From: an uncultured archaeon
GTDB taxonomy: Archaea > Asgardarchaeota > Lokiarchaeia > Sigyniarchaeales > SOKP01
Assembly: GCA_964493715.1 (NCBI GenBank)
Contig: CAZBPC010000061.1
Coordinates: 1-20,925, forward strand
Length of the DNA stretch: 20,925 nucleotides
Direction of reading: 5' to 3'
The position numbers and the translations under genes are program-made. Under the pieces are notes generated by a model. It worked only from the letters and a program-made list of their open reading frames with translations, was not told the DNA's origin and did not search any database. Below, one piece after another: positions 1 to 9,597 of this stretch. How positions within the stretch are numbered: position 1 is the stretch's first letter; every line of letters starts with the position of its first letter.

Positions 1-1
1 T

Positions 2-625
2 GAATATCTTGAAATGGGTTTTAAATTTCATGGTCATAAATGTCCTGCTATGCCATTAGGACTAAAAGCAGCGAGTATTGCAATGAATACGTTAAATGTT
101 GAAAGATCACAGGCAGGTGAATTATATACAATCTTAGATTTAGGTGACTTTCACTGTGCAACTTGTTTTGCAGACGGAGTTCAAATTATAACCGGTTGTA
201 CCTATGGAAAAGGAAATATCTCAAGATCTCATAAAGGTAAATTTTCTCTAACTTTGATAGATCGGAAGAATGGAAGGGGTGTTAAAGTAATTCCTTCAGG
301 AGAGTGGTTAAAGCAAGCATTCCAGTCAGATTTTATGGAACAGCGTAAAAAGGGAATTCCTCCTCAAAACATTTCAACTGAAATTACCAATCCACTTATT
401 GAAAAAGTACTAAATTCTTCAAATGATCAATTCAAAGTTAAATTATTACCAAAGATAAACATTGAGATACCCCCACACATTTGGGATAAAGATCTATGTG
501 AAGAATGTGGAGAATTAACTGTCGCCGAGTATGGACATTACATTAATGGAAAATTTTTATGTAAGGACTGTGCCAGGATGACTGATAATATTTTAGGGGG
601 ACTTCGTGGTCCTAAAATAGTATAA
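2..625 (+). CDS. FmdE-family (formylmethanofuran dehydrogenase subunit E-like) protein with C-terminal C4 zinc finger; probably 5'-truncated by the window edge
   Basis: FHGHKCP, C-x2-CFADGVQIITGCTYGKGN and C-terminal CEECGE...CKDC motifs are typical of FmdE. The frame is open from position 2 (EYLE) to the ATG at 14, so the true start may lie outside the window. Confidence 0.85.
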   Translation, partial: EYLEMGFKFHGHKCPAMPLGLKAASIAMNTLNVERSQAGELYTILDLGDFHCATCFADGVQIITGCTYGKGNISRSHKGKFSLTLIDRKNGRGVKVIPSGEWLKQAFQSDFMEQRKKGIPPQNISTEITNPLIEKVLNSSNDQFKVKLLPKINIEIPPHIWDKDLCEECGELTVAEYGHYINGKFLCKDCARMTDNILGGLRGPKIV

Positions 626-677
626 TAAAAGCAATTTACCATTTTTTATTTCTAATTTCAATTTTGAGGTCAATCCC

Positions 678-1523
678 ATGGAAATTTTATTGTATTTTGT
701 CATTGCTATTGTAGTCTTTGCATTTACAGCAATAGTAGCTATAGCTGGTATTGGAGCAGCATTTATTTTAATCCCTTTCTTGTTTTGGATGGGATACCCA
801 TTTAATCTTGCAGCAACTATAGGAATGTTTTCAAATGTGTTAAGTACTGGTTCGCAATCATATGTGCATGCAAAAAATCATTCAATTAACTATCGCATCG
901 CTTTACCTATGATTATTACAAGTGGAATTTTTGCGGTTATAGGAGTATTAATATCAACATCTGTGGATGAAAAAATCTTGTTAATTTTATTTTCAATATT
1001 TCTTTTTGTAGCAGGATCATTTATTTTTTTTCGAACAGTTAAAAGTAATAAAAATGAAAATTTTGAAAAAAAAGAAATTGAAAACATAAATATATTATCA
1101 GGAAATATTAAAGAAAAGAAGGAGCATATAGATCTGAATGAAGAAAATACATTTACACCTTCTAAATATATAATTTTTGGATTGATTTCTGGCATATTAA
1201 TTGGATTCATTAGTGGAATGCTAGGAGTAGGTGGAGGGTCACTTATTCTACCAGTACTATTGTTTTATGGAATGGAGACAAAAAAAGCAGCATCAACTAC
1301 TTCATTTGTCGTTTTATTTTCAAGTCTAACGAGTTTTCTTTCACGTGTAATTATAACTCAAATTGATTGGGGACTCATAATAATTGTTGGAATATTTACG
1401 CTGATGGGTGGATTCACAGGTTCTAAATTGATGCATTTCAAACTTAAACAGAAGCAAATAAAACTTGTAATAATTATAATTCTATGGGTTGTTGGAATTA
1501 AGATACTTTTAGGTTTATTTTAA
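678..1523 (+). CDS. TauE/SafE (TSUP) family sulfite/sulfur-compound exporter
   Basis: Hydrophobic two-repeat membrane protein with GIGAAFILIP and GFISGMLGVGGGSLILP motifs plus KKAASTTS. Confidence 0.88.
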   Translation: MEILLYFVIAIVVFAFTAIVAIAGIGAAFILIPFLFWMGYPFNLAATIGMFSNVLSTGSQSYVHAKNHSINYRIALPMIITSGIFAVIGVLISTSVDEKILLILFSIFLFVAGSFIFFRTVKSNKNENFEKKEIENINILSGNIKEKKEHIDLNEENTFTPSKYIIFGLISGILIGFISGMLGVGGGSLILPVLLFYGMETKKAASTTSFVVLFSSLTSFLSRVIITQIDWGLIIIVGIFTLMGGFTGSKLMHFKLKQKQIKLVIIIILWVVGIKILLGLF

Positions 1524-1548
1524 TAAATTATGTTGAAGAATTAACCCG

Positions 1549-1569
1549 TTTGATTTTTTATAAATCAAA
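1549..1569. promoter_or_regulatory. Inverted repeat overlapping a TATA-like box upstream of the ArsR gene; candidate autoregulatory operator
   Basis: TTTGATTT-N5-AAATCAAA (1549-1556 / 1562-1569) overlaps TTTATAAA (1557-1564), ~55 nt before ATG 1623. AT-rich, so a chance match is possible. Confidence 0.35.
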
Positions 1570-1622
1570 ACAAATATAAATTCGAATTAGTTATAAAAAT
1601 ATGAAATTAATTAGAAAAGAAT

Positions 1623-1991
1623 ATGAATGAAATGACAGATAAGATTAAGAACTACATTGCTCTGAATAATATAGATGAAAGTGAAGAAGAATTTAAAACA
1701 AAAATCAAACGATGGAAGGTTGAGGTTTTAAATAATCCATCGTTTGAAGAGGAACTCAAATTTCATAAAGCCTTAGCAAACCAAGAGAGATTACTAATTT
1801 ATAAACTTCTTCTTAAAAGACCAATTTGTACTTGTGTATTAAGTTTTATTTTAGGCAAATCTCAGAGTACAATAAGTAGTCATTTAAAAGTAATTGAAGA
1901 TGCGGGTTTAATTATCGGAAAAAAAGAAGGCTATTTTGTGCACTACTACACTCGAGAGATGTTTGCTCAAGAATTTTCATTTAATATCTGA
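1623..1991 (+). CDS. ArsR/SmtB family transcriptional regulator
   Basis: FHKALANQERLLIYKLL...ICTCVL...SQSTISSHLKVIEDAGLI...KEG...Y winged-HTH signature with a CxC potential sensing site. Confidence 0.9.
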   Translation: MNEMTDKIKNYIALNNIDESEEEFKTKIKRWKVEVLNNPSFEEELKFHKALANQERLLIYKLLLKRPICTCVLSFILGKSQSTISSHLKVIEDAGLIIGKKEGYFVHYYTREMFAQEFSFNI

Positions 1992-2133: not shown

Positions 2134-2220
2134 TTAAGTTCCTTCTTCGTAGCCGTGGATATAGTTATATTGTTCCTCGGTTAAATTATCAATCTCAACG
2201 CCCATTGCTTGAAGTTTAAG
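2134..2220 (-). repeat. Diverged duplicate of the ahcY 3' end (LKLQAMGVEIDNLTEEQYNYIHGYEEGT*); gene remnant or 23-aa small ORF (ATG 2205 to stop 2134)
   Basis: Manual alignment of 2134-2217 to 5085-5168 gives 69/84 identical nt, no indels, the same TAA and 3 amino-acid changes. An in-frame stop at 2224-2226 rules out a full second ahcY. Confidence 0.9.
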
Positions 2221-2285
2221 AAGTTATAAATATATAAGAATTTTTTTCGGATTCCATTGAAGTAGAAGAATTAAGGAGTCAATAT

Positions 2286-2429
2286 TTAGATGTAAGAAGT
2301 TCCTTTTTTTCCACTTGTCCCACTTTCATAAGGAATTGATTGTAAAATAATATCTGCTTGATTTATCAGATCAGATGATAATGCTATTCCCCCAAAAGAT
2401 CCATAATCGTCATCTTTATACTGCCCCAT
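2286..2429 (-). other. Possible 47-aa small ORF or gene fragment (MGQYKDDDYGSFGGIALSSDLINQADIILQSIPYESGTSGKKGTSYI)
   Basis: ATG-to-TAA open frame with protein-like composition between the SIR2-TPR stop and the ahcY duplicate; no family recognised. Confidence 0.25.
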
Positions 2430-2511
2430 AGTAAGTGGATCATTTTTGGAAAATATATAATTTCACAAAATTAGAAATGAATAAAAAAAAAGATGTAGAA
2501 GATCTAACTTA

Positions 2512-4767
2512 TTAATTTTGAATAGATTCAATATCATTTTTAATTTCTTCTTTAGTCTGTGCATCACCTAATTTTTCATAAAGTTCTTGAGCATCTTTTA
2601 ATATACTAATTGCTGTTTCACCATCTTCTGTATATTTATAATAAGAAATACCCATACTTCTGAGGTATTTCGCTTTTCTCTCTATATCGTCTCCATCTTT
2701 TAATAGATCAAGGATCTTTAAATAACTATTATAAGCTCTCTCGTAGTCTTCTATATTATAAGATACAACAGCAATGCTGTTATGAATATCAACAATAAAA
2801 TTGATATCACCGATTTTCTCAGCAATTTCTAGAGATTGCCTGAATAATGATAAAGCATCATTATATTTGCCGAGATTATAAGCAGAAGATCCCATCGAGT
2901 TTAGAAGGTTTGCCTTATTAGGGAGCATATCATGTTCCTCATAAATTTCAATAGCTTTTCCCCAACTCTTAGTAGCTTCTTCCTCATTTTTTAGAAAATC
3001 CTGTAGATTTCCAATCATATGAAGTAGACTTGCTATACTCTCGTAATCATTTATCTCAGTTGCAAGATCAAGCCCTTTATTGAAAAATTCAAATGCTTTT
3101 TCATAGTCCCCTAAATCCTGATAGATTAAACCAATATAATTTAGTCTTACTGTTTGCTCAGGAAGAGTTCCAAGTAATTTATCGATTTGCAAAGCTTCTT
3201 CAAAAAAGTTCAAAGCTTTCTCAAACGCGCCTGATGTTTTGTGAACCACCCCAATATCCATCAACGCCTTCGCCTTAAATTGCAAATCCCCAGTCTTATT
3301 TACTATATTTATAACTTTTTGATAATAATCTAAGGCTTTATCTTGATTACCCATCTTTCCATGAGCAACTCCAAGATTTAAAAGAGGCCCTATACACCCC
3401 TTTAAATCATCATTTGCTTCATTAAGTTTTAATGATTCCATATAAAAATTTATTGCATTTTTGAAATCAGCTTGACTCGAATAGAAAGTACCAATATTGT
3501 TCAGACAAGAGGATTGTCCTTCATAATCATTAAGCTTGTTAAAGATTTCTTTTGCTTCTTCTAACTTTTCTATACATTGAATACGGGATAGTTCACTAGA
3601 AGAGAAGCTAGCAATATTAGTTAAAAATTCAGCTTCCCCTTTTAGATCATTCATGGATTTAGCTAATTCTAATCCTTTTTGCCATACGCGTCTCGCATTT
3701 TTCCAATCACTTAGAGTGTGATAAATATCACCTGCGAATTCATACTGGGTGATTAAATCGATGTTTTTATACTCATCCAAAGATTTTATCCACTCACTGA
3801 AATCGGGGTATTTCATTTCATCCTCAACCTTTACTTCAGTAATTGGGATGGATAGTAGAATTTTCGGCCATAAGAATTCCGAAATAAACGTTTTAGTATT
3901 CGATTTAATAAGGAATGTCTCAATATTGTGCTTTTTTTTTATATCATATAGAAATTTTTCCTGCTTTGATAGATCTAAATTTAAAACTGAGTCGAAACGC
4001 ACTATTTCTATATCTTCTAATCCTGTTTTAGAGATATGATCAATCCAAATGATTTTTTTATAAATAGCAATTTCTTTTAAGAAAGGAGTAATATCAAAAT
4101 CATCACTGCCAGAATATCCTATAATAATTAAGACACGATCTTTTATTATTTTTGAAATTATTGGTTTTTTATAGGGTTCAATAGTAAAAGTATCTCCTTC
4201 CTCTCGATCCCTTCCTAATGAGGAAATGGTAGTTACAAGAGACTCGGAAGTATTTTTTTCTGTTATAAGATTTCTCTTTGAGCCGTGGAGTTTGAAAAAG
4301 GAAAATTGCTTGATATTAGCTACATCATTTATCTGATTAAGATCTAAATATTGTTTTTTTAATATTATAGGATTTATTTGTCTCCTTTCTTCATTTGATA
4401 GAATGTTAATCAGCGCACATTCAATTAAATAATCAAAATTCGTGGTTATTACTTGATTTTTAATAGTAATATTGTGACCTAAAAAGTAATGGATAAGATT
4501 TGGTTTCATTCTTTGCTCTAAAAAATCCAGAAATCTAAGGGATTTATCAATGTATCGTTGAAGTTGTTCAACAAAAATCTCATATCTTAAAGATTCTTTT
4601 TGTAAAATTATATTGATTTCTTCAGCAGGAACACATAATCTCGCTAAAGTTTCTAAAAACTTTTTGGCTGAAGGCAAATTACTCGGAGCATCCATAGAAA
4701 TTCCTGCTCCAACTAAAAATGTGATTTTATCCGAAGGTTCAATAATTTTTGCAAAATTAGAATTCAT
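2512..4767 (-). CDS. SIR2-like (SIR2_2) domain protein fused to a C-terminal tetratricopeptide-repeat array
   Basis: FLVGAGIS, ITTNFD, KLHGS and IIGYSGSD motifs in the first ~250 aa. About ten ~40-aa TPR units follow from ~aa 340 (e.g. LLNLGVAHGKMGNQDKALDYYQKVINI). Confidence 0.9.
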   Translation of the reverse strand: MNSNFAKIIEPSDKITFLVGAGISMDAPSNLPSAKKFLETLARLCVPAEEINIILQKESLRYEIFVEQLQRYIDKSLRFLDFLEQRMKPNLIHYFLGHNITIKNQVITTNFDYLIECALINILSNEERRQINPIILKKQYLDLNQINDVANIKQFSFFKLHGSKRNLITEKNTSESLVTTISSLGRDREEGDTFTIEPYKKPIISKIIKDRVLIIIGYSGSDDFDITPFLKEIAIYKKIIWIDHISKTGLEDIEIVRFDSVLNLDLSKQEKFLYDIKKKHNIETFLIKSNTKTFISEFLWPKILLSIPITEVKVEDEMKYPDFSEWIKSLDEYKNIDLITQYEFAGDIYHTLSDWKNARRVWQKGLELAKSMNDLKGEAEFLTNIASFSSSELSRIQCIEKLEEAKEIFNKLNDYEGQSSCLNNIGTFYSSQADFKNAINFYMESLKLNEANDDLKGCIGPLLNLGVAHGKMGNQDKALDYYQKVINIVNKTGDLQFKAKALMDIGVVHKTSGAFEKALNFFEEALQIDKLLGTLPEQTVRLNYIGLIYQDLGDYEKAFEFFNKGLDLATEINDYESIASLLHMIGNLQDFLKNEEEATKSWGKAIEIYEEHDMLPNKANLLNSMGSSAYNLGKYNDALSLFRQSLEIAEKIGDINFIVDIHNSIAVVSYNIEDYERAYNSYLKILDLLKDGDDIERKAKYLRSMGISYYKYTEDGETAISILKDAQELYEKLGDAQTKEEIKNDIESIQN

Positions 4768-4833
4768 TATTTAAATTTTTTTAGTTTTAAATTATTAAAT
4801 ATGTGAAAGTAAATTAAAAGTATTACTTTATCA

Positions 4834-4855
4834 AACATCCTCGATCGAGGATGTT
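4834..4855. repeat. Perfect 22-bp palindrome AACATCCTCGATCGAGGATGTT
   Basis: The sequence equals its own reverse complement and lies 67-88 nt upstream of the SIR2-TPR start. Confidence 0.9.
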
Positions 4856-5084
4856 CCAGAAAATTTAAATCTCTTACAAACTAATTGAGTAAACTGCAAG
4901 ATATTAGAATAATAATAAAAAATATAACGCTTCTAATTATGACAAAAAATAAATTTGGAACCCGAACGTGATTCATTAGATAATTTTAAAAAAAATTATC
5001 TCTCGAAGGCCCCCTCTAATTAAATGATAAAATATCTAACCAAAAAATTGAAAAAAGAGTAAAACAAAAAAAAAGATTAGGAGC

Positions 5085-6353
5085 TTAAGTCCCTTCTTCG
5101 TAACCGTGAATGTAATTATATTGTTCTTCGGTTAGAGTGTCTATCTTTATACCCATAGCTTGAAGTTTCAAAATTCCTACTTTATCGTCAATATCAGTTG
5201 GTACATCAACCATTCCTGGTTTAAGATTTTTCTTGTTTTTAACAATATACTCAGACATTAAAGCTTGAAGTCCAAATGACATGTCCATGACTTCACTAGG
5301 GTGTCCCTCAGAGAGCACTAAATTAGCCAAACGCCCTTTAGCTAGAAGATAAACCTTTTTACCATCGGGAAAGACTAATTCTTCTACATCACGCCGAATT
5401 GGTTTGATTTCTTTAGCAAATTCGTATAGTTCCTTGGTTGGGATTTCTATGTCAAAATGCCCAAGATTACCTAAAATAACTCCGTCTTTAAGAGCATTAA
5501 AGTTTTCTATTGTAGGTAATATCACGTGTTTACATCCCGTTGCAGTTAATATAATATCTGCGTCAGGTAAGGCTTTTCCAATTGGCATTACTTGGTAACC
5601 TGTAAATTTAGCTTGGAGCGCTTTAATCGGATCAATCTCAGTGACAATGACGTTAGCACCTAGTCCCCTAGCTCTCAATGCCATGCCTGATGAACAGTGT
5701 CCGAATCCTGCAATCACACAAACCTTGCCCGCAAACAAAACGTGCATTCCATATATTGCTGCAACAATCCCTTGTCCAGTTCCTAATTCATTATCAAACT
5801 GATTTTTACAACGAGCATCATTAACTGGAAATAAAGGAACTTTTAAAGCACCTTGTTTATCCATTGCTTTAAATCTTTTCACGCCGGTTGTTGTTTCTTC
5901 TTGACAAGCGATAATAGTTCCATTCTGTATCAATTCAGGAAACTCTTTATGCGCAGTAACAATCATATCAGCACCATCGTCTATAAGAATATTAGGCCTA
6001 GCTTTTAAGCACTCTCTTATACACCAATAAAATTCTTCATCAGTATTGCCATGCCATGCAAATACATTTATTCCTTCTTTAACTAATGCAGCTGATACAT
6101 CATCTTGAGTTGATAAAGGATTACTTCCACATAAATATACATTTGCACCACCAGCTTTTAATGTTCGAGCTAAATTTCCTGTTTCTTTTGTTATATGAAG
6201 GCATCCAGCGATGGTTATGCCCTTTAAAGGTTTTTCCCTTTCAAATCGTTCTCGAATAACTTTAGAAATGACGGGCATTTTATTTTCAGCTATATATAAT
6301 GCTTCTCTACCTTGTTCTGCTAAAGTTTCATCAGCAACTTTATAATTTATCAT
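5085..6353 (-). CDS. ahcY: Adenosylhomocysteinase (S-adenosyl-L-homocysteine hydrolase)
   Basis: GCLHITKET, GSNPLSTQD, IDDGAD, EETTTG, VNDARCKNQFDN, GHFDIEI and GRLANL...GHPSEVMDMSF motifs. ATG at 6353 preferred over the GTG at 6362. Confidence 0.97.
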   Translation of the reverse strand: MINYKVADETLAEQGREALYIAENKMPVISKVIRERFEREKPLKGITIAGCLHITKETGNLARTLKAGGANVYLCGSNPLSTQDDVSAALVKEGINVFAWHGNTDEEFYWCIRECLKARPNILIDDGADMIVTAHKEFPELIQNGTIIACQEETTTGVKRFKAMDKQGALKVPLFPVNDARCKNQFDNELGTGQGIVAAIYGMHVLFAGKVCVIAGFGHCSSGMALRARGLGANVIVTEIDPIKALQAKFTGYQVMPIGKALPDADIILTATGCKHVILPTIENFNALKDGVILGNLGHFDIEIPTKELYEFAKEIKPIRRDVEELVFPDGKKVYLLAKGRLANLVLSEGHPSEVMDMSFGLQALMSEYIVKNKKNLKPGMVDVPTDIDDKVGILKLQAMGIKIDTLTEEQYNYIHGYEEGT

Positions 6354-6360
6354 ATTTAAC

Positions 6361-6390
6361 ACTTTTGTTAGATGTACTTTTGTTAGATGT
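6361..6390. repeat. Perfect 15-bp tandem duplication (ACTTTTGTTAGATGT x2) immediately upstream of ahcY
   Basis: 6361-6375 is identical to 6376-6390. Confidence 0.85.
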
Positions 6391-6492
6391 TACTTATTAA
6401 ATTTTAATTGATTAATAAACGTATTTTTAATTAAAATGTTTACTTAATGAAGAATTTATTAACATTTAATTCATTATATATTGTGTTGTATA

Positions 6493-7461
6493 ATGAATAA
6501 ACAAAAGATAGAATTAAAAGATGAACAAGAGGTTCAGAATCTCCTTAAACCTTTAAATTCTCGTTCTAAATTAAGAGTTTCAAAGATTTCTGATACATTA
6601 GACATATCTCGACAATCTTTTCACACTAAATTCTCTGCTTTGATATCGGATCAAATAATTAAGAATTTTACAATTAATATAAATCCGAGATTAGGTCAAA
6701 ATAGAATGAAAATTGTAATACTAGAGATTAAAACAAATCCAAAAGAGCCACATTTGGTGCAAGATTTAATTAAAATCCCACAATTGAAAAGTTTAGATGG
6801 TATTTTTGGAGAATTTTCCTTAATCGGTCTATTACAATTCAGATCAGCAGAGCAATATCATGAAATACTACATGTTATAGACCAAATCATGACAGCTTCT
6901 TATTTTAAAAAATATCAAATGACCGAGGTAATACGCATTTATAAAATGAATGGAATTCAACTCAATGAAATCGAATTTGATCCAAAGTATGAACTAGATG
7001 AAGTAGACTATAATATTTTAGATATATTGCAAGAAAATCCAGGATTAAAACCAATTTCTACTTATGAAGTGAAAAAGATTCTCAATCAAGATTTAAATCA
7101 AATTTCCCAACCTACAATCTATAATAGGATTAAACTCCTTGAGAATTCAGGAATTATTTTAAATTATACGGTTAACTTTAACCCTAGAGCTATTGGATAC
7201 AATGGGAAATTTATAGTTAGAATTAAACCAAGGAATCCTTCTGAGTACGATGAACTTGCTTTAAATTTGGAAAAAATTAAGGAAATCACTGATTTATTCC
7301 GAATTGGTGAGCAATATGGTCTTTTTGCTGTTGTCCGTGTTAAAAGGATCGATGATTTCGCTAAATTTATCAAAGAATTATATAATGAAAAGATTGAAGA
7401 TACACTCACAAATTTTGTGCTCGACGAGCTGATTTTGTATGATAATTTTGCAATCTTCTAA
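6493..7461 (+). CDS. Tandem-domain Lrp/AsnC family transcriptional regulator (HTH-RAM-HTH-RAM)
   Basis: Two HTHs (ISRQSFHTKF...IIKNFTININP and LDEVDYNILDIL...ISQPTIYNRIKLLENSGII), each followed by a RAM domain (GIFGEFSL, RIGEQYGL). ATG at 6493 preferred over the TTG at 6481. Confidence 0.85.
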   Translation: MNKQKIELKDEQEVQNLLKPLNSRSKLRVSKISDTLDISRQSFHTKFSALISDQIIKNFTININPRLGQNRMKIVILEIKTNPKEPHLVQDLIKIPQLKSLDGIFGEFSLIGLLQFRSAEQYHEILHVIDQIMTASYFKKYQMTEVIRIYKMNGIQLNEIEFDPKYELDEVDYNILDILQENPGLKPISTYEVKKILNQDLNQISQPTIYNRIKLLENSGIILNYTVNFNPRAIGYNGKFIVRIKPRNPSEYDELALNLEKIKEITDLFRIGEQYGLFAVVRVKRIDDFAKFIKELYNEKIEDTLTNFVLDELILYDNFAIF

Positions 7462-7518
7462 TAAATCTTGGAATGAAAAAATTTAACTTTAATTGCTTTG
7501 GCATACTATATTGAAACG

Positions 7519-9597
7519 ATGAGGATTTTTTTTGAATTAGTGAGCAAAAAGATAGGTCTTTCAAGAATCGGACGCATTATCCTTTCAAAAGAAGAAAAAA
7601 GATACGTGAGTTCTCCGAATCTTATTATTCCGATTAAGAGATCACTAGTAAACATGGTGGATTTCCTTGAAGAATTCGAAAAACATCCAATATTCTTGAT
7701 TTCAAACGAGATTTTTCTGAAAATATCATTTTTACGAGCAAAATTCAAGGAAAATGCCTTTTTATATACCCATTATGGGACGATTGAAAAATTCGATAAA
7801 GTTTTAGAGGAAAATAAAGCAATTTTCCTTGGAGATAATATTATTGCATTAATCCCTTTTAATAATCCTACAACAGTTCTAAATAAAGATTTTGCGAAGA
7901 GAGAAGTTGAACATCACATCAAAATTATTCAAGATATACTTATAAAAAATCCATACTTAAATTTTGGTGTTACGATAAAACTTTTTGGTTATGCCGAATT
8001 ATTTAATCTATATTTCCCCTTAATCCAAAATAACACTAACATTAAAATTCTTAACTTCAGGGATTTATTTGAATATAAAAAGAACTTTCGACAAATCCTA
8101 CAAATAATTTTTGAAATTCGAAAAGAAGTTGATCAAAATTTATTATTTATGATATCAGGTAAAATCTTACCAAACTCTTATCCATTATTAGTATATCTAG
8201 GATTTGATCTCATAGATAGTTCATACATGTTATATCTTTCTTCTGAAAACCTTTATGATACGATAGAACACTTATTACCAGTATATAAGATGCAGTATTT
8301 TCCATGCTCTTGTTGCGCTTGCAAAGGAAAGTTAAAAAATTTAGCATCAGAGAAATTTACAAGAGAAAAATTTGGGCAATTAACTCTTCATAATTTGATC
8401 AATGCCAAAAACCAAATACATAAAATTAAGCAATATATAAAAACGGAAGATTACAGAAATTTTGTTGAAAAGTCTTCAATGAATGATACCACTTTATTGT
8501 CAATGTTAAAAATTGCAGATCATCAATATTTTGAGGAAATTAGATATGAAACTCCAATCATGCAAGAAGTCAAACCTATAGAAAGCATTGGTCCATCCTC
8601 ATATTTTCGTCCAGATTTCCAAGAATATAGAGAAGAAATAATTAAAAATTTTGAACCTGAACCTTGGACAAGACTAATCATATTATTACCTTGTTCTGCC
8701 AAGAAACCTTATTCTGAATCAAAATCTCACAAGAAATTCCAAGAAGTAATGCATAAATTCAAAGAATTCCCGGATTTTCAAGAGTTTATAATAACATCTC
8801 CTCTTGGAGTAATACCTCGTCAATTAGAGGACATATATCCGGTAAATAGTTACGATATTTCAGTAACCGGGGAATGGGATTCTGAAGAAAAATTAATTGC
8901 ACAGGAGATGCTAACAAAATTTATTTCGATGTACGATCCAAAAATCCCAATTATTTGTCATCTTTCTGGAGAAGCATATAAGGAAATTGTGGATAACACT
9001 ATGAGCATCTTGCCTCATGAAGTTTTTTTTTCTGACATTGATAATAGATTAACTTCTAAAGAATCTCTAAAATCTTTAGAAAATTTATTAATTAAATGTA
9101 AAAATATATCCAATACATCTGATTCAAAACAAAGTCAATATCATAAATCTTGGATACGTAAATTTGTAAAAATCCTCGATTATCAATTTGGAAAAGGAAT
9201 TGGAGTGGCTTTTTTTTCAAATACAGTAAGATTATATCCAAATAAGGACAAAACGATTATTAATATCAGAGATGTAAATTCAAAAAAAAAATTTGGTAAT
9301 TTTATAAAAAAAACTGGGCAGTTAGAACTTTCCATATATGGTTCAAATACTATTAAAGATATTATTAAAATCACTCACTTCATAATCTTTGATGGAGAAA
9401 ATATTGGTGGAAATACATTATTTAGACCGGGAGTTATTGATTTTAGTGATGATCTCAAACCAAATAATTTTGCCTTTATATGGAATAAGACAAAAGAGGA
9501 AATAATTGGAATTGCAAGGATGTTGGTTGGATCACCTTATATTAAAAATTCTAATACTGGTCCAATTGCTAAAATATATGAAAAAATGAAAAAGTGA
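7519..9597 (+). CDS. arcS: Archaeosine synthase subunit alpha (ArcS / arcTGT2)
   Basis: TGT-like N-terminus (GLSRIG), zinc site CSCCAC...HNL, ArcS motif LLPCSAKKPYSESKSH, ITSPLGVIPRQLE...YP...YD and a C-terminal PUA-like domain (LFRPGV). ATG at 7519 is likely; the ORF track starts at TTG 7498. Confidence 0.9.
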   Translation: MRIFFELVSKKIGLSRIGRIILSKEEKRYVSSPNLIIPIKRSLVNMVDFLEEFEKHPIFLISNEIFLKISFLRAKFKENAFLYTHYGTIEKFDKVLEENKAIFLGDNIIALIPFNNPTTVLNKDFAKREVEHHIKIIQDILIKNPYLNFGVTIKLFGYAELFNLYFPLIQNNTNIKILNFRDLFEYKKNFRQILQIIFEIRKEVDQNLLFMISGKILPNSYPLLVYLGFDLIDSSYMLYLSSENLYDTIEHLLPVYKMQYFPCSCCACKGKLKNLASEKFTREKFGQLTLHNLINAKNQIHKIKQYIKTEDYRNFVEKSSMNDTTLLSMLKIADHQYFEEIRYETPIMQEVKPIESIGPSSYFRPDFQEYREEIIKNFEPEPWTRLIILLPCSAKKPYSESKSHKKFQEVMHKFKEFPDFQEFIITSPLGVIPRQLEDIYPVNSYDISVTGEWDSEEKLIAQEMLTKFISMYDPKIPIICHLSGEAYKEIVDNTMSILPHEVFFSDIDNRLTSKESLKSLENLLIKCKNISNTSDSKQSQYHKSWIRKFVKILDYQFGKGIGVAFFSNTVRLYPNKDKTIINIRDVNSKKKFGNFIKKTGQLELSIYGSNTIKDIIKITHFIIFDGENIGGNTLFRPGVIDFSDDLKPNNFAFIWNKTKEEIIGIARMLVGSPYIKNSNTGPIAKIYEKMKK

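Follow-up and report, generated by a model that had tools for sequence, protein, structure and literature searches.

The 3' end of ahcY, the gene for adenosylhomocysteinase, is a recurrent insertion site in the genome of an uncultured Lokiarchaeia archaeon (Sigyniarchaeales, SOKP01; GenBank assembly GCA_964493715.1), where accessory genes lie stacked behind the live gene and are separated by dead copies of its own coding end. The window analysed here is the whole contig CAZBPC010000061.1 (contig C61, 20,925 nucleotides, nt), and the element in question is a cassette with a SIR2-TPR gene, bracketed by the live end of ahcY and by a displaced one, named tail29; this cassette would be the youngest layer of the stack. 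We lean towards explaining the arrangement by tail-replacing insertions that are spread by host homologous recombination, with the tail copies serving as homology arms. Throughout, G000 designates the genome carrying the window, a metagenome bin of 160 contigs and 3.68 Mb with an estimated contamination of 3.85%, and the other G-numbers designate its relatives, taken as one genome per species, the species not being independent of each other. The features of the bracketed cassette are these:

5085..6362, minus strand: live ahcY, 425 codons from a GTG at 6362 (TIGR00936 equivalog; Pfam AdoHcyase and AdoHcyase_NAD).
5085..5173, minus strand: live version of the repeated tail, the final 29 codons of the gene and its stop, G001/G022-like at 12-15 of 18 informative sites.
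4910..5034, plus strand: ghost of a convergent luciferase-like (LLM, ~280 aa) oxidoreductase gene (blastn, start alignment, peptide matches).
2512..4767, minus strand: SIR2_2 plus TPR protein, 751 aa, accessory cargo and candidate defence gene (Pfam SIR2_2, 37.8 bits against a cut-off of 24.5, plus TPR families).
2134..2222, minus strand: displaced ahcY tail, tail29, codons 397-425 plus stop (tail profile, E 7e-23).

The live gene matches the curated, full-length TIGR00936 equivalog model at 521.2 bits (cut-off 497.6) and is the sole full-length ahcY copy in G000. Its relatives start at an ATG corresponding to 6353, three codons inside the GTG of G000, and a perfect 15-nt tandem duplication (ACTTTTGTTAGATGT x2, window 6361-6390) sits exactly on that GTG. 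The two tail copies, 2134-2222 and 5085-5173, align without gaps at 81% identity across 89 nt; their translations read LKLQAMGVEIDNLTEEQYNYIHGYEEGT and LKLQAMGIKIDTLTEEQYNYIHGYEEGT, both end in TAA, and an 11-nt core at the 5' edge, AAACTTCAAGC, is identical between them. An earlier sequence-only reading of this DNA had described the direct repeat, which is real (69 of 84 nt identical, 15 differences, no gaps), together with 11 synonymous and three non-synonymous codon changes (V/I, E/K, N/T) and a T-rich tract after each copy; these hold as well, the codon changes being counted over 25 aligned codons. We also agree with its view that, given the synonymous bias, the two tails diverged as parts of working genes: live and relic tails differ mostly at third codon positions both here and in most other displaced-tail loci described below (18 synonymous against seven replacement changes at the locus on C40), therefore the tails stem from different working alleles and not from local duplication. 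As to what lies between the copies, the SIR2-TPR gene was correctly noticed, and no integrase, transposase or tRNA was found there by Pfam and tRNA scans, whereas the small open reading frame (ORF) that had been proposed is unsupported and the LLM ghost had been missed.

Just upstream of tail29, two codons ahead of the shared core, an in-frame TAA marks it as a dead fragment, and on its other side it is trailed by ~20-37 nt of conserved terminator flank, down to ~2097 (homology with relatives' ahcY 3' flanks extends to 2097-2116 by blastn). The match is not a chance one, because the tail motif placed directly before a stop codon has five matches in a six-frame scan of the 3.68 Mb genome, all at the ahcY locus, and because a DNA profile of genus ahcY tails matches 2222-2134 at E 7e-23. 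Furthermore, among contigs assembled from other samples (runs X2, X3, X4 and X10), the junction at 2134-2222 is bridged by contigs of X2, X3 and X4, and the junction at 5085 by contigs of X2, X3 and X10; the arrangement is therefore no assembly chimera, an outcome that the sequence-only reading had named as refuting its model. A loose end at 5279 proved to be sequence of another relic, tail72, mis-laid on the live gene. Contigs of X2 and X3 leave the window at 1967 (also at 514, 641 and 1068); the loose end at 1967 matches C118:7274-7303 of G000, on a contig that is otherwise dissimilar to the locus, and is possibly a strain variant or a k-mer link.

The stack of displaced tails continues from the window onto contig C17, as follows:

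1..55 of the window, no strand: overlap with the right end of C17, 55 nt identical (C17:48173-48227).
C17 47984-47754, same strand as the other relics: tail72, 72 codons with an internal stop (tail search).
C17 46421-46387, same strand as the other relics: tail10, 10 codons (tail search).
C17 44980-44906, same strand as the other relics: tail24, 24 codons (tail search).
C17 41583-41540, same strand: weak fifth relic, E 0.28, reading EINKLT*DQYIYSW.

Among the 160 contigs, this is the only end-to-end overlap for the two ends concerned; the reading frame of an FmdE-like gene runs on across it, and an X2 contig extends 254 nt past window base 1. The putative join rests on this k-mer-length overlap and on frame continuity. 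Read in the direction of ahcY, the stack consists of ahcY, the LLM ghost, SIR2-TPR, tail29, convergent ArsR, TauE and FmdE genes, tail72, a convergent nitroreductase-like gene (383 aa), tail10, a convergent LLM gene (312 aa), tail24 and a convergent ABC-2 transporter gene; from the live stop it is 8.35 kb to tail24 and ~11.7 kb to the weak fifth relic. Every relic in G000 retains its stop codon, the terminator and ~20-100 nt of 3' flank in all, and only the 5' ends vary, with limits at codons ~350, 397, 402 and 416 (72, 29, 24 and 10 codons, respectively), all four different. The cargo between tails amounts to one to three ordinary genes per layer, and the DNA upstream of the relics is unrelated to ahcY and to one another. 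The locus shows the anatomy of anchor-type displacement, namely a conserved 5' anchor, a complete live gene, and downstream same-strand orphan 3' ends with passengers.

Some further features of the stack were recorded. An ArsR/DUF7347-type regulator adjoins a frameshifted paralog that is 63% identical (C17:41621-42134 and 42250-42750; L013 11622-12751), and the weak fifth relic lies just beyond this pair, 11 nt past the stop of a convergent zinc-ADH gene. A 9-nt unit, TTATTTTTA, is repeated in a run within the spacer that separates tail10 from the nitroreductase-like gene (L013 16512-16567, C17:46511-46566). A convergent peptide remnant, ...DPSYWPGR.., is common to the flank of tail10 (C17:46138-46386) and to the live ahcY flanks of G001 and G023 (L016 1-360; L046 3273-3678), and resembles the end of another lost neighbour gene. 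Possible ArsA-tail relics in two spacers (E 0.007-0.4) were taken as noise.

Comparison of the ahcY locus across relatives, as the sequence-only reading had proposed, revealed both empty sites and sites with other cargo. In the common arrangement, ahcY converges on a gene for an ArsA/Get3-like ATPase, which is followed by Toprim, OsmC, FtsY, prefoldin, eIF6 and S15-peptidase genes; throughout the genus, synteny holds upstream of ahcY but not downstream. Among the 28 genus genomes with usable context downstream of ahcY (in six more the contig stops at most 0.8 kb downstream), 12 have an empty site, with the ahcY and ArsA-like stops 8-207 nt apart, and 16 an occupied one, with 0.5-9 kb of differing genes. 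The inserted genes encode DUF6125, a ribbon-helix-helix protein, two LLM oxidoreductases, an OYE reductase, DJ-1, a cupin, a CAAX protease, DUF2961, TFIIB, a TetR-ADH-methyltransferase-DUF4386 block, an iron-type ABC transporter and SIR2-TPR. The cargo is mostly metabolic (oxidoreductases, transporters, regulators) and not mainly of the defence type that had been suggested. None of the cargo ORFs scanned with Pfam (in the window, at C17 30000-48227 and in the 16 occupied genus loci) belongs to an integrase/recombinase, transposase or homing-nuclease family.

The search for relics was extended to 136 genomes of the class, followed by inspection, and displaced ahcY tails were found in 12 genomes of five genera (G000, G023, G015, G051, G074, G079, G084, G090, G095, G117, G125 and G135). 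The claim of a recurrent, integrase-free insertion site at the ahcY 3' end thus stands, with four to five relics in G000, 16 of 28 genus loci occupied and relics in 12 genomes. In the wider-family genomes the cargo comprises a PEP-utilising enzyme, an nSTAND3 NTPase, PIN plus UPF0175 toxin-antitoxin pairs, transglutaminase-like proteins, transporters and large unknown ORFs. In G000 the conserved ArsA-Toprim-OsmC-FtsY-prefoldin-eIF6-peptidase block (C17:12331-32149), together with genes beyond it, is inverted relative to ahcY, and one inversion breakpoint therefore lies at the ahcY hotspot.

Other observations were made at these loci. A DUF6125 gene of 167-170 aa is present in the ahcY-ArsA interval of 10 genus genomes (L083, L088-L091, L043-L046, L055) and also belongs to the cargo of a different displaced-tail locus, the one on C112 in G000; either an ancient neighbour or a frequently carried passenger would fit. 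G008 has a second full ahcY, 77% identical, on another contig and in another gene context (G008:C16:11702-12964, L056). The S15 peptidase is tandemly duplicated in G000 (C17:18459-23003), G056 and G041, with 54% and 78-82% matches to the single-copy query. In G026, of another family, an internal ahcY fragment lies 0.8 kb downstream of the gene, in a locus with masked bases.

The pattern is not restricted to ahcY: nine other loci in G000 show it. We compared the C-terminal 80 residues of each of the 2,938 called ORFs with the G000 genome and counted as orphan tails those matches with E <= 1e-5, at most 30 kb away and outside any ORF of at least 120 aa. Of these orphan C-terminal fragments, 14 lay downstream of the parent gene and on its strand, one lay upstream (a tandem paralog boundary) and none was on the opposite strand. 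The nine loci besides ahcY with a clean succession of gene, cargo and own tail are on C101, C112, C14, C2, C20, C40, C6 and C63 (L070-L077) and on C55 (L078); in each of them an orphan copy of the last 29-71 codons of the gene lies 0.1-4 kb downstream on the same strand, with ordinary cargo between. The parent genes include those for a DNA methylase, a ubiquitin-conjugating-like enzyme, a phosphofructokinase, a VWA protein, DUF2804 and an alpha/beta hydrolase. On C20, what separates the alpha/beta hydrolase gene from its displaced tail is a SIR2-TPR paralog, which comes first, and two small ORFs. The SMC gene found in G000, on C48, has scpA/scpB-like genes directly behind it.

The polarity first proposed for the window, with the tail at 2134 as the native one, is not supported. 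The closest relatives, G001 and G022, share 85% DNA identity with G000 across ahcY, Lrp and the TGT-like gene, and at the 18 sites that differ between the window copies G001 follows the live tail at 12 and G022 at 15, while tail29 is followed by G009, G017 and G024 at 12 sites each. Moreover, the live tails of G009 and G007 match tail29 at 88% identity, versus 80% for the live tail of G000 itself. Because G001 and G022 match the live tail, the tail at 2134 is not established as native. Congruence of the live tail with the ahcY body, which the sequence-only reading had counted against its own model, was found by half: in segment trees nt 961-1275 of the G000 gene group with G001/G022/G056 (support 0.995), nt 541-960 with G012/G017 (support 0.91), and nt 10-540 with G014/G015/G056 (support 0.92). 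The first third is 93-96% DNA-identical to G014, while the protein encoded by the adjacent Lrp gene of G014 is just 54% identical. Given these three segments with different relatives and the contrast seen in G014, segments of ahcY move between species; a chimeric ahcY is also expected under plain homologous recombination. On C17, tail10 and its 70-nt flank are G001-like, and with several layers in, 'native' and 'foreign' cannot be read from a single tail pair. Two approaches to polarity were set aside: a Campbell-type crossover within the window's repeat, as the whole length of the live tail resembles G001/G022 and tail29 does not, with no clear switch point in the 18 sites, and a comparison of flanks, which are short and T-rich and give ambiguous alignments.

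The course of events that we lean towards, with host homologous recombination as the agent, would be the following. A gene as highly conserved as ahcY would recombine often between species of the family, and incoming DNA from a relative, consisting of the 3' part of ahcY plus that relative's downstream genes, would pair with the resident gene, its far end being resolved inside the resident tail. The gene would keep a complete end, and the resident end, with its terminator and former neighbours, would be pushed downstream as a dead relic. Once a relic is present, the unit of live tail, cargo and partial tail would be flanked by ahcY homology on both sides; host homologous recombination would then copy it into other genomes, cassettes could also be lost, and the unit could in principle loop out and re-enter as a circle. 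Repeated insertion would stack the layers, none of which in G000 appears to encode an enzyme for the process. Of all this, the sequences show the stack, the variable occupancy of the site, the mosaic ahcY, the synonymous-biased divergence, the chimeric relic of G051 described below, the downstream polarity of orphan tails and the lack of recognisable recombinase or nuclease genes. We infer in which direction and sequence the events took place, by what route recombination proceeded and whether circles were intermediates, and each cassette type would first have arisen by a rare illegitimate join or by break repair.

The tail-replacement model, whose polarity is unsupported at the window, has a clean fit in G051. 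In that genome, a 77-codon relic lies 80 nt from ArsA, where live tails sit in empty sites; with the live tail of G016 it shares 93.6% identity, and its flank matches at 45 of 50 nt. The relic is preceded by TetR-ADH-methyltransferase-DUF4386 cargo, the same cargo stands behind the live gene in G052, and the ahcY body of G051 is found at the edge of another contig. At the sites that differ between G016 and G052, the relic has the G052 state in four of the first nine and in none of the last 22, and five of its 12 differences from G016 fall within the first 25 nt, with split points (9 versus 22 sites; 25 nt) that were picked after viewing the data and with G052 as a proxy for the donor allele. 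Judging from these sites, the displaced tail is the resident allele, donor-like at its 5' end only, and this donor-type 5' end therefore points to homologous resolution inside the tail for that event. Such resolution could have occurred on import of a ready-made cassette with its own relic as right-hand arm or on single-crossover entry of a circle, whereas a fresh illegitimate join would not predict such a chimeric relic.

Several points weigh against the homologous-recombination account, including the two limits just stated for the G051 test. Of the 16 occupied genus loci, 12 carry no relic, therefore many insertions happen without tail duplication. In G000, the tails do not reveal the order of events; tail10 and the live tail are both G001-like. 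Joints that skip the cassette, in an excised or empty form, were not found in the contigs of X2, X3, X4 and X10, a weak point as contigs drop rare variants. The 5' ends of relics recur near a few positions in different genera, namely at codons 347-351 in G000, G051, G079 and G135, at codons 395-398 in G000, G084 and G117, and at codons 310-314 four times within G135, a recurrence that hints at a site-preferring cut; we dropped boundary clustering as a claim of its own at 10 close pairs versus 5.9 expected (P = 0.07, conservative permutation). Lastly, the first cargo slot of G135 holds a 793-aa ORF with a sub-threshold match to NERD, a PD-(D/E)XK nuclease family (E 0.0066, 17.4 bits, cut-off 22.1).

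Between ahcY and ArsA, the locus of G135 holds six relics, and of these four begin within ~3 nt of one another near codon 312. Its large unknown ORFs finish 6-34 nt ahead of a relic (L099 6736-9117 and 820-2538; L098 10748-11632). The ahcY gene of G135 is split into ORFs of 310 and 100 codons by a 32-nt insertion near codon 309 (L099 9873-9904, G135:C22), which contains an 8-bp hairpin (TTTAGCAC...GTGCTAAA) and an in-frame stop and lies ~10 nt upstream of the shared start of the four relics; a scar, a tiny mobile hairpin and a spliced insert are all conceivable.

Homing-type elements, such as WHO at FBA1 of yeast and the mobile ORFs of fungal mitochondria, offer a rival explanation that we regard as possible but rather doubtful. 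A nuclease encoded beside a recoded tail would cut an ahcY lacking that tail, repair would copy in the tail, the nuclease and its passengers, and the nuclease genes of G000 would since have been lost, leaving the passengers. The anatomy and the chimeric evolution of the target match the description of WHO (PMC7282813), the relic boundaries loosely cluster, with the four shared starts in G135, and that genome also has, besides the NERD-like ORF of its first slot, two further unknown ORFs with D...ExK-like motifs seen by eye alone and unconfirmed by any tool. However, neither the four to five layers of G000 nor the cargo of the 16 occupied genus loci contains a nuclease family, and in eight further family loci the Pfam scan gave, as nuclease-type matches, the one sub-threshold NERD hit and two PIN-type toxin genes. 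The 170-290-nt spacers before the G000 relics resemble no cargo protein; a search of nine G000 spacers for nuclease relics, using relatives' cargo in tblastn, matched only the LLM ghost and the ArsR-like pseudogene paralog. A nuclease acting in trans was likewise rejected as a candidate, as G000 has no homolog of the 793-aa ORF of G135 and its only NERD ORF is an unrelated one elsewhere in the genome, on C69. In addition, the four boundaries in G000 all differ. A broader proposal, which joins elements of both accounts and which we put forward tentatively, is an integrase-free cassette system of this Asgard family, in which the 3' end of a conserved gene would serve as a portable recombination site: cassettes of replacement tail, cargo and partial tail would be made at preferred breaks in ahcY, possibly by undescribed homing nucleases of PD-(D/E)XK type such as the first-slot ORF of G135, and host recombination alone would afterwards excise them, exchange them between genera and stack them.

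It is improbable that the stack consists of decayed integrative elements, which would have used a tyrosine or serine integrase and an att site in the ahcY 3' end and would since have lost the integrases and most element genes. Integrase-bearing elements, such as e14 at icd and the tycheposons, typically carry a replacement 3' end and leave partial copies of the target between cargo blocks, which is the arrangement seen here, and recurrent relic boundaries would fit a small number of att types. Against this, no integrase was found in the ~36 loci examined. The identical core between the window copies, 81% alike, is at most 11 nt, and in place of a constant 5' limit the relics start at codons ~350, 397, 402 and 416; within one boundary class the starts scatter by ~13 nt and the upstream sequences are unrelated. 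The layers moreover consist of one to three ordinary genes with no element backbone. Integrated elements known from Asgard archaea carry integrases and short att motifs (PMC11529989), and are in this unlike the ahcY arrangement.

Least probable of all, to the point that we give it very little weight, is a local tandem duplication of ahcY with decay, or an assembly artefact of mixed strains. A bin of 160 contigs with 3.85% estimated contamination and a C17-window join on a 55-nt overlap could be held in its favour, but the copies are 18-23% different and mostly synonymously so, which indicates divergence in separate working genes, and the relics are closer to alleles of other species than to the gene beside them. 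Both window junctions are bridged by contigs from three other samples each, and the same architecture is present in 11 other genomes.

Several known systems resemble the ahcY stack in part. As in integrons, single-gene cassettes are stacked on one side, promoter-proximal, with a repeated recombination sequence between them; however, an IntI integrase, attI and attC hairpins are absent, the repeat is the coding tail of a neighbour gene, and most ahcY cargo genes face the opposite way with upstream regions of their own. No inverted repeat shared between ahcY cassettes was found. The element e14 and phage 21 at the icd gene of E. coli, and the tycheposons with their partial tRNA repeats, encode integrases and have a defined recombination core. 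In these a duplicate of the target 3' end brackets the insert with mostly synonymous differences, and serial integration leaves partial targets, as at ahcY, where an integrase and a defined core were not found. Arrays of C-terminal displacement are represented by rhs orphan tips (Jackson et al. 2009, as cited in PMC5361080) and by the effector-immunity arrays of the Vibrio cholerae type VI secretion system (T6SS), for which homology-facilitated illegitimate recombination followed by homologous spread of the arrays was proposed (Kirchberger et al. 2017, PMC5361080). These share with ahcY a conserved 5' anchor, an incoming 3' end with passengers, old 3' ends stacked downstream and the lack of an integrase. 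There, as described, a variable toxin domain forms the end that is replaced and its immunity gene is the passenger, and this pairing explains the arrays by selection; in the archaeal ahcY stack, in contrast, the tail of a conserved enzyme is replaced, the old and new peptides are nearly the same and the passengers are unrelated ordinary genes. WHO elements at yeast FBA1 (Coughlan et al. 2020, PMC7282813) comprise endonuclease genes and pseudogenes, with gene fragments that start at the cleavage site, and that paper describes a housekeeping gene followed by clusters with its own 3' fragments, the youngest nearest the gene, and a chimeric 3' end. The stack in G000 differs in having no nuclease gene or recognisable relic of one, ordinary cargo and four different fragment starts.

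In the open-access literature, with supplements and subscription journals outside the scope, we found no description of displaced housekeeping-gene tails as cassette separators in archaea, and nothing relevant on ahcY as an insertion site or on C-terminal displacement in archaea. What sets the present case apart from the known systems is that the tail of a conserved enzyme gives way to a near-identical one, with unrelated cargo, in an archaeal host, at many target genes of a single genome and with no nuclease on site.

The remaining features of the window are the following:

1..1991, plus strand: next cargo layer, convergent to ahcY, with FmdE-like 14-625, TauE/SafE exporter 678-1523 and ArsR-type regulator 1623-1991 (Pfam).
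2286..2429, minus strand: 47-codon ORF, probably not a gene, inside the 287-nt spacer 2223-2511.
6481..9597, plus strand: conserved upstream anchor, with a double Lrp/AsnC-type regulator 6481-7461 and an archaeosine-TGT-like gene 7498-9597 (Pfam).

Within the bracketed cassette, the best PADLOC match of the SIR2-TPR protein to a SIR2 is weak (pAgo-associated SIR2, E 1.9e-5 over ~100 residues), and a PADLOC scan found beside the gene no partner genes of the SIR2 defence systems DSR, Thoeris ThsA or pAgo-associated SIR2. An ortholog (78% aa identity) is present in one of the 40 other genus genomes, G023, where it is likewise directly behind ahcY, with a 42-codon ahcY relic 1 kb beyond it; the DNA common to G000 and G023 corresponds to window 2502-4828, at 83% (blastn). 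Two SIR2-TPR paralogs, on C57 and C75, were without bracketing by a neighbour's tail in the tail scan. In G000, SIR2-TPR does not abut the live tail, as the deleted LLM gene intervenes: the ghost retains a ribosome site, the ATG (4939) and the first seven codons joined to the last ~25 codons, and matches both ends of the intact gene behind ahcY in G012, G021 and G017 (blastn), with peptide matches MTKNKFG and KKIISRRPPLIK. The 47-codon ORF had no Pfam or PADLOC match and no similarity to relatives' cargo proteins at E<=0.005. In the next layer, which extends from tail29 to tail72 on C17, the FmdE-like gene (14-625) begins on C17, and neither the TauE gene (cut-off E<=1e-40) nor the nitroreductase-like gene of the layer beyond has an ortholog in any of the 40 other genus genomes. 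On the other side of ahcY, the Lrp gene stands beside it in all 13 extended genus loci, and the TGT-like gene is found wherever the flank reached far enough.

Taken together, the displaced tails constitute a record of accessory genes entering an Asgard archaeal chromosome without mobile-element machinery on site, in which each worn tail corresponds to one event that can be dated. An orphan gene tail downstream on the same strand offers a simple signature for recent acquisitions and their donors. With the same scar behind ahcY in five genera and behind nine further genes of G000, this may be a common route of gene gain in the lineage.

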